Shown piece by piece: positions 1,241-6,259 of a DNA stretch of 64,000 bases. Every line of letters starts with the position of its first letter. Within the stretch, counting starts at the first letter, position 1. Source of the stretch: an uncultured Acidimicrobiia bacterium (GTDB lineage: Bacteria; Actinomycetota; Acidimicrobiia; Spongiisociales; UBA5794); assembly GCA_963792895.1 (NCBI GenBank), contig CAWBYA010000004.1, forward strand, positions 162,069-226,068, written 5' to 3'. The position numbers and the translations under genes were made by a program. The notes below the pieces were generated by a model. That model was not told the origin of the DNA. It saw only the letters and a list, made by a program, of their open reading frames with translations, and made no database searches.

Positions 1241-2161
1241 TCAGCCGAAGCGAAGCGGCAGGTCGGTGGGTCGGTAGAACGAGGGCGGCAACTCCTCGCA
1301 GTGCTCCAATGCCATCACGATCTGCGCGGATGCCCCGAGATCGCCGTGGTAACCGCCTGGGATGTCGAGCTGGAGCGGAGGCTCGCCATCAACAACGATA
1401 CGATCGCCCGGCTCGGTGAGGCCCCAATCGACGACGATGTCGAGGTCGATCGTCTTCTCGCCCGCACGGAGGGTCACATGTTGGCGGAAGCCCGAGACCA
1501 CGTCGCCATGCGCGATGGCCGACAGGGTGTCGGTGACGTCCCGGTTCGGCCAGGCGAGGGCGTGGCCCAGGAGGTGGGCGCTCGGAACGAGGCCGCGGTG
1601 CCCGACGCTTCCCGCTGCCACCGCCGCATCCCACTCGGCGAGGCTGAGACCGCGACCGGTCTTCGGGATGAACGACTCGCGTCTCGCCGAGGAATCGATG
1701 CGGCGAGTGACCGTGAGGCTCTTGACGTTGCGGCATGCCGAGGCTGCCATGAGCGGCAGGCGATCCATGATGAAGCCCGGGTTGACGCCCGTCATGACGA
1801 TGACTCTTCGGTGGGTCCGCGCCGCCGTGTGCAACGCATTCCACATGTGGCGGGGAGGCCAGGCCAGCTCTTCGCATGTCGTGACCACGTCATAGCCGAG
1901 GGACACCAACCGCAGGATCTCGGGAGCGACGACGTCGACCTCCGGAGAAACGGCGACGAGCGCACGATCGCCTGTTCGCGCCTGGGGGACCTCGTGCGTG
2001 CTCGTGTACACGGGAGCACCATGGACCGTACCGAGCCGGGTTCCGGCGGCCGGATCGACGTCGACGACCCCTGCGACAGAATCGACCACGCCGTCCTGGA
2101 GCGCAGCGGCGGTCGCTGCAGCGCCGATCTGACCAGCGCCGACTACGAGGAGACGTGTCAT
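1241..2161 (-). CDS. NAD(P)-dependent DapB-like / diaminopentanoate (amine) dehydrogenase family protein
   Basis: Rossmann LLVVGAGQIG, VVTTCEEL, TGVNPGFIMD motifs; ATG at 2161. Confidence 0.75.
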   Translation of the reverse strand: MTRLLVVGAGQIGAAATAAALQDGVVDSVAGVVDVDPAAGTRLGTVHGAPVYTSTHEVPQARTGDRALVAVSPEVDVVAPEILRLVSLGYDVVTTCEELAWPPRHMWNALHTAARTHRRVIVMTGVNPGFIMDRLPLMAASACRNVKSLTVTRRIDSSARRESFIPKTGRGLSLAEWDAAVAAGSVGHRGLVPSAHLLGHALAWPNRDVTDTLSAIAHGDVVSGFRQHVTLRAGEKTIDLDIVVDWGLTEPGDRIVVDGEPPLQLDIPGGYHGDLGASAQIVMALEHCEELPPSFYRPTDLPLRFG

Positions 2162-2215: not shown

Positions 2216-3281
2216 TCACCGCGGCAGACGAACCTTGCGAGTTGCGATCTCGTCGAGGTACGTGCGGTCGACGGTGATGCCGAAGCCCGAACCGGCACGC
2301 GGTGTCATCGCACCGTCGGTCACGGTCCACGCCGGGATGACGAGGTCATGGGCGAACCAGTGAGCCGAGCCTCCGAGGTCGCTCGGCAGCGAGACATGCG
2401 GGTGGGAGGCCAGCGCCACCGCAACCGTCTTTCCGATGCCGGTCTCTACGAGGCCGCCGATCTTCACATCGATGCGATGGCGCGGCAGCAAGCTCGATGG
2501 CTCGCCGCGTGAGGGTTGGCCCCAGGCGCCCAGGTTTGAGAACGACGGCATGGGCCGCGGACGATGCCGCAATCGTCACGATGTCGCCCAGCCGCTTCAC
2601 CGACTCGTCCAAGCAGACGGTTGTGGAGATTCGCGCCTGCAGCGTCGCATGGCCGGGCAGGTCGAGTGGGCCGAGGGGCTGCTCGATGTAGGTGAGCCCG
2701 AGCCGGTCGAGCGCGACGAGGTCGTCCATCTGCGTTCGCCGGAAGCTCCCGTTTGCGTCGACGGCGATCCCGATGTCGGGGAAATGGCGCCGAACGTCGC
2801 CGACAACGTCGAGTCGCCCTGGCATGATCTTCAGCTTGACCTGCGTGTGGCCAGCCTCGACCGCTCGGGCTACTGCGCCGATCACATCTGCGGGTGCGGC
2901 CCCGAGCCCGATCGCCGCCGATGCGGTGACCGGCTCTATCCCACCGCCGACCTCGGCGGCCAGCGACACGCCGTTGTGAGCCGCACGCAGCGAGGTGAGG
3001 GCTGCGTCCATGGCAGACGTTGCGCTCGAGCCCTCGATGAGCACCGGCTCATCGGCTCCGAGGATGCGGCCGGCTTCCCGTACGAGAAGCTCCCAGGCCT
3101 CGTCTGCATTGTCGCGGGTATGACCCGGGAATGGCGCAGCTTCGCCCCACCCTTCTGCCTCATTGCGGGAGACACGAACGATGACGGCGCGACGGGTCTC
3201 GAAGGTGCCGTCGCTCGTGACGAGGGGCCGCACCAACGGCAGCTCGACGTTCCATAGCTCGATGCGTTCCGGCCGGATCAT
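2216..3281 (-). CDS. menC: o-succinylbenzoate synthase / N-acylamino acid racemase-like enolase-superfamily enzyme, frameshifted near 2482
   Basis: EGWGEAAP, KLKI, DANG, YIEQP, LDES, LKPG in ORF 2346..3305; C-terminus (KIGGLVETGIG...SDL) continues in ORF 2216..2572 in another frame. Confidence 0.7.
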
Positions 3282-3400
3282 GGCAGGGGTTCGAGGCGTC
3301 GCCATTGCCCCAGGCAGAATGTGGTTGCGCGCACGGGTGAGATGTTACGCAGCGGCGAGGTGGTAGTGATCGTTGCTCTCGCTCGCGCAGCGCGGTTCGT

Positions 3401-4038
3401 CTACCTCGGTTCGGGCAGGGTCCAGAAGCTCGAGCGGAGCCCAACCGACGCAAGAAGGTGTTGCAGCGCCTCGCGGGCGCGGGGCTGTAGGTGCGGTCGA
3501 GGCGATCGCCGTACCACCGTCGGGTCAGCCGCCACATGATCTCGATCGGGACCGCTGCGCCCCGCCGTGTCGCGCGTTCCTCCGACCGGAGGAAGCGGAT
3601 GGTGCGTCACGTCTCGACGATGTCGTCCCACCACTGTCTGGCTGGAATCGCGAAGTGGATGAACCCGCCGGTCGACGTCAGGGTGCCGCCGGCGACGGCG
3701 AGCTCGATCGGCTCACCCGTGTCGTGCCATCGTGCGTCGATCGTGGCATCGATGCGGAGCACCGCCGGAATCGCAAGCGAGTCCCATGCACAGTTTGCCC
3801 ACCATTCGCGATCGTCGGCGACGACCCGATAGTCGGTCGGCACCGCCGAGAAGGGGAGCGCCATACGAATCTCGCCGCGTGCGTCGAGCACCAGTGCATG
3901 TGCGTCATGGAGCCGGCGCAGCGCCTGACGCCCCGCCGCATCCCCGCCAGCCCACGTTGCGATCGCTGCAGTGGTGGGAGGCCGCCCGGTGTCGGCAAAC
4001 GTTCGGTAGATCTCGTACCGGAGTTGTCCATCGTCCAC
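3401..4038 (-). CDS. MerB-like (alkylmercury lyase family) protein, probable selenoprotein (UGA 3607-3609), with a 1-nt deletion near 3481-3484
   Basis: MALPFS, WANCAWD, HFAIPARQWWDDIVET then TGA; in-frame continuation RTIRFLRSEE...MWRLTRRWYGDRLD, and with one more G at 3481-3484 the tail PRAREALQHLLASVGLRSSFWTL; hairpin 12 nt after the UGA. Confidence 0.8.
3577..3594 (-). promoter_or_regulatory. Putative bacterial SECIS element
   Basis: Minus strand TTCCTCC-GGTC-GGAGGAA: perfect 7-bp stem, GGUC loop, starts 12 nt 3' of the UGA. Confidence 0.7.
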
Positions 4039-4119: not shown

Positions 4120-5013
4120 ATGCCACAGCGCCTTCTCACCTTCGCCGGCACGCTCGACCTGGCAGCCACGTTTGGAGCGATGGCCTCGAAGGCGGCGGGA
4201 CGCGTCCGTTCAGGTCGCGATGAGGTCTGGTGGGTGACCAACACGGCCGCCGGCCCAGCCACGCTCCACGTGCGGGCGGACGGCAGCGTGGTCCGCGGCG
4301 AGGCGTGGGGACCTGGGGCGACCTGGGCACTCGACCGACTGTCGCGCGTGTGCGGCCTCTCCGACGATCCCAGCCGGTTCGCCCCTTTGCCTGGCCTCGT
4401 CCGAGACCTGCATCGGCGCAATCCAGGATTGCGGCTCGGAGCCACCGGCCGGGTGTTCGAGATGCTGGTGCCGGTGATCCTGGGGCAGCGCGTGACGTCC
4501 GTCGAGGCGGAGCGCTCCTACCGGCGCGTCCTGGACACGTTCGGTACCCCGGCGCCGGGGCCGATCGAGGCGATGGTGCCGCCCGATGCGGCGACGCTCG
4601 CACGTCTGTCGTACGCGGACCTCCACCCGCTCGGGGTCGAGCGTTCGCGGGCGCAGATCGTCATCGAGGTGGCCCGCCGCGCCGCCAGGCTGGAAGAGAT
4701 CGTCGGCATGCCGCTTCCCGAGGCGCACGCTCGGCTGACGGCGGTCCGTGGTGTGGGTGATTGGACTGCGGCGATCGTCATGGGCGGGTCGCTGGGGGAT
4801 CCCGATGCCGTCCCGATCGGCGACTACCACCTGCCCAACATGGTGGCATGGGCGCTCGCAGGGGAGCCCCGCGGAACCGACGAGCGCATGCTGGAGCTCC
4901 TGGCGCCCTATGCGGGCCACCGGCGACGGGTCCTCATCCTCTTGAAGTCGGCGGGCATCCACGCACCGCGCTACGGACCGAAGCTGGGGCTGCGCGACTT
5001 CAGTCGATCGTGA
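4120..5013 (+). CDS. DNA-3-methyladenine glycosylase 2 (AlkA-like, HhH-GPD)
   Basis: ILGQRV, HhH VRGVGDWTA, PDAVPIGD. Confidence 0.8.
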   Translation: MPQRLLTFAGTLDLAATFGAMASKAAGRVRSGRDEVWWVTNTAAGPATLHVRADGSVVRGEAWGPGATWALDRLSRVCGLSDDPSRFAPLPGLVRDLHRRNPGLRLGATGRVFEMLVPVILGQRVTSVEAERSYRRVLDTFGTPAPGPIEAMVPPDAATLARLSYADLHPLGVERSRAQIVIEVARRAARLEEIVGMPLPEAHARLTAVRGVGDWTAAIVMGGSLGDPDAVPIGDYHLPNMVAWALAGEPRGTDERMLELLAPYAGHRRRVLILLKSAGIHAPRYGPKLGLRDFSRS

Positions 5014-5032: not shown

Positions 5033-6184
5033 TCAGTAGAGCTCGTACTGCCCGGCGACGAGCCTGTCTCGGACGCCTGCCCAGTCTTCGAAGCACTCCT
5101 CGACGACCGTGAGCACGGCAACGTCGTCGACAGGGCCGCCCGCAATCTCGATGTGCACTGCCTGCGGCGACGTGACGGGGGCGCCGATCGAGCTGAGCAG
5201 CCGGATGGTGACCTCTTCGATGCCAAGCTCGTTGATGAGGCGATCGGAGATGTCGGCGCCAACGGCGTGGTACGTCTTGCCAACGTGGGCTGCCGGGTTC
5301 TTGCCGGCCGCCGCTTCGAGGCTCATGGGCCGATACGGGGTGATGAGCCCACCGAACCGGTTGCCACGACCCACCTGACCGTCGTCGCCGGCTTCGGCAG
5401 AGGTGCCGGTGAGTGTCAGGTAGGGCGTGTCGGCTTCGTCACCCTGGTTGACGCCAACCTCCACCGGTCCGCCGAACGCCTCGGTGGCGACATCCATGGA
5501 CGTGCCTCGGATGGCCTGGACGACCTCGTCGTACTCGGGACGATTCGCGACGGCCTTGGCCATGACGGGAGCCGCCACCGTGAGCCTGGCCTCGAGGCCG
5601 ACGCGAGCACCCATCACCTTGATGTCACGGCCGACGGGAACCGCAGCGCGGTAGCCGTCCGAGTTGAGGTGTTTCTCGACGGCGTGAACGGTGCGTTCGA
5701 GCGGAGAGCGCGGCAGCGACACGGCAGCGAACGACGTGTCATTGGCGTGCGGCGCCTCGTCGCGTGGGCCTGCGACCGCGGCCAGGTCGATCGACGACTG
5801 GCTGAGCCAGATCTCGACGTCGAAGGCCTCGGGGGTTGCATCTGGGAGCAGTTCGAGGAGCTTCTGCTTGTATTCCGCAGCCAATTCCTCGACGTTTGGC
5901 TGCCAGTGCGTCGAGAAGTTCGCCTTGCCGACCAAGACCAGTTTGGCGGACTTCAAGTGGACGCCGCCGCCGAAACCGACGTCGACAGAGCCTGCGGCGA
6001 GGATCGCCTTGTCGACGTTGAAATGCTGGACCGCGCCGGTGTGGGTGATGTAGTCGGACGCAAGCCGCCTGGCCAAGTCCTCGGCGAGATGGTCGCAGAT
6101 CGTGTCCGGGTGGCCGAGCCCTTTGCGTTCGACGAACTCCACGGGCGGCGCGTAGCGGCCTCGGTGCGTGACGGAGAGATTCAT
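5033..6184 (-). CDS. S-adenosylmethionine synthetase, archaeal-type
   Basis: VERKGLGHPDTICD, NDTS, GDDGQVGRGNR..GLITPYRPMSLEAAAGKNP..HVGK; ATG at 6184. Confidence 0.85.
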   Translation of the reverse strand: MNLSVTHRGRYAPPVEFVERKGLGHPDTICDHLAEDLARRLASDYITHTGAVQHFNVDKAILAAGSVDVGFGGGVHLKSAKLVLVGKANFSTHWQPNVEELAAEYKQKLLELLPDATPEAFDVEIWLSQSSIDLAAVAGPRDEAPHANDTSFAAVSLPRSPLERTVHAVEKHLNSDGYRAAVPVGRDIKVMGARVGLEARLTVAAPVMAKAVANRPEYDEVVQAIRGTSMDVATEAFGGPVEVGVNQGDEADTPYLTLTGTSAEAGDDGQVGRGNRFGGLITPYRPMSLEAAAGKNPAAHVGKTYHAVGADISDRLINELGIEEVTIRLLSSIGAPVTSPQAVHIEIAGGPVDDVAVLTVVEECFEDWAGVRDRLVAGQYELY

Positions 6185-6259
6185 GGCATGCGCCCCCTGT
6201 GGCGTGAACAAACGGACATCGTAGTTGGCTGGCTGAGCATCGAGGATTTCGATCAGCGT

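Follow-up and report, generated by a model that had tools for sequence, protein, structure and literature searches.

A candidate SECIS hairpin with a GGUC loop within a MerB-like lyase gene from an uncultured bacterium of the class Acidimicrobiia

The window, that is, the whole 64-kb stretch of DNA analysed here, carries on its minus strand a gene for a MerB-like lyase of about 212 aa, in which an in-frame UGA, predicted to encode selenocysteine (Sec) at residue 144, is followed by a short stem-loop that lies entirely within the coding sequence (Table 1). The start codon was assigned from homologs that begin at an equivalent M-D-D. The product matches the Pfam MerB family PF03243 with 83.5 bits, against a cut-off of 27, and the match spans the UGA. 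The genes around it encode a member of the MenC/enolase superfamily (2346-3305, minus strand), an HhH-GPD (AlkA-like) glycosylase (4120-5013, plus strand) and an archaeal-type SAM synthetase (5033-6211, minus strand; PF01941, 331 bits). No mer genes were found near the MerB-like gene in the window.

Table 1. Coordinates of the MerB-like gene and of the elements of the hairpin (positions in the window)
Feature	Position	Strand	Basis or remark
MerB-like lyase gene	3401..4038	minus	likely start GTG at 4038, stop TAG 3403-3401
Cys83-Ala-Trp-Asp86 codons (NCAWD)	3781..3792	minus	counterpart of MerB Cys96/Asp99
In-frame UGA	3609-3607	minus	candidate Sec codon, residue 144, read from sequence
Spacer UGA-to-stem, 12 nt, codons Arg-Thr-Ile-Arg	3606-3595	minus	length same in 139/139 aligned sequences, gap-free
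Stem 5' arm UUCCUCC (codons Phe-Leu and first base of Arg)	3594-3588	minus	sequence and fold
Apical tetraloop GGUC, G +24 / U +25, presumed SelB contact	3587-3584	minus	loop conservation
Stem 3' arm GGAGGAA (last base of Ser, then Glu-Glu)	3583-3577	minus	sequence and covariation
Lower extension, window-specific	CGC 3597-3595 pairs GCG 3575-3573, C3576 bulged	minus	predicted fold

As assembled, the gene lacks one base near 3474/3475, so that its last ~25 codons are out of frame. Near-identical contigs from three DNA runs (X1, X2 and X3) and from a metatranscriptome run (X6) carry an extra G behind 3474, and with this G restored the frame reads ...SPAPREALQHLLASVGLRSSFWTLPEPR*, in agreement with the conserved C-terminus of the relatives. 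Public contigs that span the UGA show no change at the TGA, and their frame is intact. On this comparison of contigs, the 3474-3475 deletion is an assembly consensus error and lies outside the biology of the gene. The RNA contig from run X6 spans 3318-3559, which corresponds to the post-UGA part of the gene, and can be taken as a weak sign that the MerB-like gene is transcribed.

Around the UGA, the minus strand reads GAG ACG UGA CGC ACC AUC CGC UUC CUC CGG UCG GAG GAA CGC GCG. The arrangement put forward in the original prediction, namely, a UGA, 12 nt and the hairpin UUCCUCC-GGUC-GGAGGAA, matches this sequence exactly, and the coordinates agree with a loop GU at +24/+25 when the U of UGA is counted as +1. 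The additional CGC/GCG pairing that had been proposed below a bulge survives only in part: it is present in the predicted minimum-energy fold of the window sequence but is not conserved among the relatives, the two pairs concerned being open in 94 and 107 of the 136 sequences, and the lower helix was rejected as a conserved feature. The upper helix is continuous in the predicted fold, with no bulged U in the stem.

Taken by itself, the window sequence says little about the significance of this structure. The 39 nt that begin at the UGA fold with -15.1 kcal/mol (z = -2.15; 4 of 200 shuffles are as stable; ViennaRNA), and a 61-nt stretch reaches a folding z of just -1.24; the energy of the hairpin in a single sequence is modestly, indeed marginally, unusual compared to chance. 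The 64-kb window contains a single UGA in an open frame that is followed, at this distance, by a GGUC-loop hairpin with 5 bp or more. Comparison of the hairpin and the window with the Rfam covariance models gave no SECIS match at the gathering threshold or at E <= 10; bacterial SECIS elements are poorly covered by the Rfam SECIS models. No terminator-like site or U-tract was found at the hairpin. We consider the comparative evidence presented below decisive for regarding the hairpin, as far as aligned sequences can tell, as more than a chance structure.

The family alignments place the UGA at a catalytic position. C83 and D86 are invariant in two alignments of the family (A1 and A3) and align with the 'CA..L' motif of MerB2, and a family profile search against the PDB aligns the UGA column with the 'GTC' Cys of MerB2 (5c17). 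This column is that of the second catalytic Cys of MerB, the metal ligand Cys159 of R831b MerB. When the gene of an intact relative (L003) is read through its UGA, the AF2 model of the product has a mean pLDDT of 97.2 and the MerB fold, with MerB2 and MerB as the top structural matches in Foldseek. Given the pLDDT of 97 and the MerB fold of this read-through model, the post-UGA segment is an integral part of the domain.

Almost all of the 120 best database homologs are annotated as proteins of ~143 aa that end, with ...WWDDIVET, exactly at the UGA. We examined the codon at this column in two sets of loci. The first comprises 80 loci on contigs from one genome per species, 79 of them scorable at the UGA column, from Acidimicrobiia, Longimicrobiales and other Gemmatimonadota, Acidobacteriota, Gammaproteobacteria, Phycisphaerae and Clostridia; the second comprises 80 more distant loci from Chloroflexota, Gaiellales, Rubrobacter, NC10, Planctomycetota, Myxococcota and others. 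In the first set, all 79 scorable loci have TGA, and the second set contains 60 TGA, 19 TGC or TGT and 1 TAG. Altogether, TGA is found in 139 of the 160 loci, and the 138 homologs with TGA cover at least 8 phyla. Behind the TGA, the frame encodes a conserved protein for 63-78 codons (RTIRFLRSE...MW.LS..WYGDRL...FWQL), and the true terminator of most genes of the family is a second TGA. Since this second TGA serves as an ordinary stop in most of these genes, the recoding would be local and specific to the first site. An exhaustive profile search against 1.8 billion cluster representatives yielded 4663 matches; among the best 150 of these, 72 end at profile position 142/143 and the others are mostly full-length proteins of ~225 aa, and the aligned full-length forms have Cys at the UGA column in nearly all cases. 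Three loci with a perfect GGUC hairpin depart from the rule: TAG occupies the Sec site in L153 (at ~1939), TGG (Trp) occupies it in L165, and L040 has an extra in-frame stop upstream. These exceptions are recent inactivations or sequencing errors.

If a hairpin is counted as present when five or more of the 6 stem pairs form and the loop fits NGUN, 132 of the 138 TGA forms possess it, with a stem of 5-7 bp, a GGUC loop and the same distance from the UGA. The stems of the TGA forms are continuous G+C-rich helices of 5-8 bp, and RNAalifold independently predicts a 6-bp stem with the GGUC loop. Across the alignment (139 sequences, 136 of them distinct), which is free of gaps from the UGA to the end of the hairpin, 89.9% of the cells of the 7-bp stem are paired, and in 6 of the 7 pairs both partners vary. 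The stem has a covariation score of 0.316, compared to 0.194 for shuffled alignments; none of 500 shuffles reaches 0.316, and every slid register scores lower. The individual compensations include a synonymous change in Leu (CUC to CUU) that accompanies a Glu to Lys replacement (GAG to AAG) in the partner, a Leu to Phe replacement (CUC to UUC) that accompanies a synonymous change of GAG to GAA in the partner and, in four sequences, conversion of the closing C-G pair to A-U through a double-synonymous change, CGG to AGG in Arg and UCG to UCU in Ser. These compensations are informative because the changes cross codon roles. The two loop codons are similarly constrained, with Arg encoded by CGG in 78 of 78 cases and Ser by TCG in 76 of 76; elsewhere in the same genes, CGG accounts for 32% of the Arg codons and TCG for 37% of the Ser codons, and the loop codons show synonymous entropies of 0.33 and 0.20 bits, versus 1.5-2.0 bits at other nearby Arg codons. 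Thus, the covariation that had been named as a check of the hairpin is borne out, with compensatory changes in the stem and a loop frozen at its synonymous sites. Some of the complementarity of the stem comes free from the protein motif, in which Phe UUC pairs with Glu GAA. The six TGA forms that lack GGUC (L057, L113, L115, L121, L128 and L055) keep the stem and have GGGA, GUGA or GGGC in the loop, and their proteins read F-R-D-E or F-R-A-E. The SelB of the Chloroflexota and Acidobacteriota lineages may accept GGGA, GUGA and GGGC as variants of the SECIS loop.

The Cys-encoding homologs are the natural counterpart to the TGA forms, and equal occurrence of the hairpin in these would speak against its role in recoding. 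It is present in 1 of the 19 Cys forms of the locus sets (L145) and in none of 8 further Cys forms, all with TGC, which are most closely related to the Sec clade; that is, in 1 of 27 Cys forms overall. The closest Cys forms that keep F-R-S or F-R-T/D encode the Arg with CGC and have a broken stem, and the usual sequence of the Cys forms is of the type F-E-N-E or F-D-S-E. Because the Cys forms generally have other residues at this place, it appears that the RNA loop imposes Arg-Ser on the Sec forms. A Fisher test of hairpin against codon gives p = 1e-17 on phylogenetically non-independent sequences, and this value is inflated because there were few independent Sec/Cys events: at least 5 changes of state are seen on the FastTree tree, and the two independent contrasts on supported branches are both in the expected direction, with a sign test that is not significant. 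The single Cys form with a hairpin, which has TGT, retains F-R-S-E, the GGUC sequence and five of the six stem pairs, and lies on a contig of a Candidatus Hermodarchaeota metagenome-assembled genome (MAG), binned as an Asgard archaeon. It is possibly a remnant left by a recent Sec-to-Cys conversion, or the contig could be bacterial and mis-binned.

The hairpin had been likened to the SECIS of E. coli fdhF, described as having a GGUC loop with GU at +23/+24. This description is confirmed by the fdhF sequence, UGA CAC GGC CCA UCG GUU GCA GGU CUG CAC C, in which the GGUC loop occupies +22 to +25, and by a review that places the minimal E. coli SECIS at nt 15-31, at a distance of 11 nt from the UGA, and names U17, G23 and U24 as conserved positions and U17 and G23 as binding sites of SelB (PMC8659212). 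Both elements lie within the ORF directly 3' of the UGA, consist of a short stem with an identical GGUC tetraloop and are separated from the UGA by a spacer of 11-12 nt to the minimal helix. In the MerB-like element, the loop lies one nucleotide farther from the UGA (+23 to +26), the stem is continuous and G+C-rich, the lower helix is not conserved, and there is no bulged U17, which E. coli SelB requires. A bulged U17 is a feature of SECIS elements of the E. coli type and is not universal. Furthermore, the host genes are unrelated, and the cognate SelB of the element studied here would be actinobacterial. Given that the bulged U17 is absent, the description 'fdhF-like' holds for the loop and, within one nucleotide, for the spacing alone.

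We propose, with a probability of about 0.88, that this hairpin, embedded in the coding sequence of the MerB-like lyase, is a bacterial SECIS that works as such. According to this proposal, a ribosome would arrive at UGA-144 while the stem-loop 13-30 nt downstream stays folded, and the C-terminal winged-helix domains of SelB would bind the apical GGUC loop, contacting G+24 and U+25. SelB with GTP and Sec-tRNA(Sec) would then bring selenocysteine to the A site, and translation would go on; the ribosome would melt the hairpin, read Phe-Leu-Arg-Ser-Glu-Glu and complete the protein of ~212 aa, in which Cys83, Asp86 and Sec144 would form the catalytic triad. In this scheme, SelB binding, the actual insertion of Sec and the substrate of the enzyme are what we infer. 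A tblastn search with E. coli SelA, SelB and SelD gave no match in the window and the 160 loci, and neither ARAGORN nor Rfam found a tRNA-Sec in the 64-kb window. In Actinomarinales, an order of Acidimicrobiia, selA, selB, selC and selD are reported to be all present in 84 of 84 complete genomes (bioRxiv 10.64898/2026.04.03.716425).

The same layout recurs in a neighboring gene at one of the loci. In L050, an Acidimicrobiales MAG, a two-domain rhodanese gene (1247-2122, plus strand) lies directly upstream of the MerB-like gene, with a TGA (2000-2002) at the catalytic Cys (AY-U-GGGIAAS) followed by the hairpin GGCGUC-GGUC-GACGCC, whose loop is at +24 to +27. The rhodanese of L050 is likely a second selenoprotein with a GGUC loop. 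Sec-type rhodanese-like sulfurtransferases are a known marine family of selenoproteins. The L050 gene shares with the MerB-like gene the UGA at the catalytic Cys, the GGUC loop and a nearly identical spacing; it belongs to a different protein family and has no counterpart in the window.

Several alternative accounts of the hairpin and the UGA have to be weighed against a SECIS. The hairpin could be a by-product of protein-level constraint on F-(L/F)-R-S-E-E, with read-through or truncation proceeding independently of it. Indeed, an FxxS/E motif is conserved in canonical MerB too, and the codons for Phe (UUC) and Glu (GAA or GAG) are inherently complementary, with 4-5 of 6 'pairs' present even in the Cys forms. 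Protein constraint does not, however, explain the frozen synonymous positions (CGG 78/78 and TCG 76/76), the wobble changes that accompany an amino-acid replacement on the opposite side of the pair or the double-synonymous AGG/UCU variant that retains the closing pair; furthermore, the Cys forms have E-N, D-S, R-T or R-D in place of R-S, and those that do have R-S use CGC and lose the stem. We regard this explanation as very improbable. A similarly slim chance is left for read-through that is stimulated by the hairpin, independent of SelB and free of selenium, with a near-cognate or suppressor tRNA (for Trp, Cys or Arg) decoding the UGA. The locus with TGG and a perfect hairpin (L165) is what one might expect under such a mechanism, but the column is that of the catalytic metal-binding Cys, of which Sec is the only functional analogue, the GGUC loop is the loop of the E. 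coli fdhF SECIS, the neighboring gene in L050 repeats the combination of a UGA at a Cys position with GGUC, and Sec machinery is documented in Acidimicrobiia (bioRxiv 10.64898/2026.04.03.716425).

The two remaining alternatives, which deny read-through altogether, appear still more remote. If the gene of the window were a pseudogene, with a nonsense mutation at the catalytic Cys codon, a frameshift and a coincidental hairpin, one would see what the assembled window offers, an in-frame TGA and a shift of frame near 3474, and the TAG in L153, the TGG in L165 and the extra stop in L040 would also fall into place. Such decay is hard to reconcile with a TGA shared by 138 orthologs from many phyla, with conserved coding downstream, and with contigs from four public runs that lack the frameshift and in which the restored base leads into the conserved C-terminus. 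Nor is it probable that the UGA is a true stop, the hairpin a terminator or a device for translational coupling, and the downstream segment a separate polypeptide. Gene callers give 143-aa products everywhere, as this account would have it, but there is neither a U-tract nor a terminator-like site, no conserved start codon or Shine-Dalgarno sequence follows the UGA, and the frame is constant and gap-free; moreover, the MerB fold (pLDDT 97) is made complete by the post-UGA segment, to which the FxxSE strand belongs, and the Cys homologs are single chains of ~225 aa.

If the hairpin is a SECIS, the family joins one previously described selenoprotein lineage of MerB-like proteins, SaoL (NCBIfam NF040728), an organometallic lyase with a C-U motif that is encoded in a nine-gene SAO locus of strict anaerobes (Haft and Gwadz, bioRxiv 10.1101/2022.07.06.499078; J Bacteriol 2023). 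The two share the PF03243 fold and Sec in place of the metal-binding residue equivalent to Cys159. Unlike SaoL, the proteins analysed here have E/F-T-U in the active site and score 35-45 bits on NF040728, against a cut-off of 140, their genes are not surrounded by the nine-gene SAO neighborhood, and their hosts are Acidimicrobiia, Gemmatimonadota, Chloroflexota, Acidobacteriota, Gaiellales and others rather than the strict anaerobes reported for SaoL. Given the low NF040728 score, the T-U motif and the lack of a conserved neighborhood, the T-U family is, by these criteria, a putative Sec lineage of the MerB superfamily separate from SaoL. In the literature, including reviews of 2022 and May 2026, SaoL is the only MerB-like selenoprotein that we found, and the BSepDB and deep-Sep papers make no mention of MerB; the T-U family thus appears to be uncatalogued. 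To MerB and MerB2 (PDB 3f0p, 3f2g and 5c17), the family is linked by a Foldseek probability of 1.00 and TM scores of 0.6-0.68, by the Cys/Asp pair of NCAWD and by a third ligand at the Cys159 column. The differences are that this third ligand would be Sec, that sequence identity is ~20%, that the family scores 37-62 bits on the canonical MerB models NF033555 and NF009710, with cut-offs of 193-200, and that its genes lie outside mer operons.

Putting these observations together, we favor, with somewhat more confidence than doubt, the following picture. The MerB-like lyases that combine a Cys/Asp/Sec triad with a T-U motif would form a large and ancient family that spans phyla, differs from SaoL and has no entry in the current selenoprotein catalogues. 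Its hosts would mostly be lineages of soils, the sea and sediments that are not known to be strict anaerobes (Acidimicrobiia, Gemmatimonadota, Chloroflexota and Gaiellales, for example), the GGUC loop would dictate the Arg-Ser dipeptide while the Cys forms are free at these positions, and the substrates would be organometal(loid)s outside classical mercury resistance. Selenoproteins have been thought to be rare in the lineages concerned. Hundreds of metagenomic assemblies contain 143-aa entries annotated as "organomercurial lyase" or as "hypothetical protein", which would then be truncated selenoproteins, and a corrected annotation would add one more family to the bacterial selenoproteome. Furthermore, a SECIS that can be aligned across phyla and has a near-invariant GGUC tetraloop should be useful for building better models of bacterial SECIS elements. 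The question raised by the family is what a MerB-type active site with Cys, Asp and Sec cleaves when there is no mer operon. The genomic context offers no operon partner common to the family, with the best-shared neighbor present in at most 12 of 79 loci. The only recurrent close neighbor, which is lineage-specific, is a gene for a small multi-pass membrane protein, by eye DoxX-like, that lies directly upstream, ~650 nt from the MerB-like gene and on the same strand, at 12 loci of Longimicrobiales and their allies (within L058-L079).
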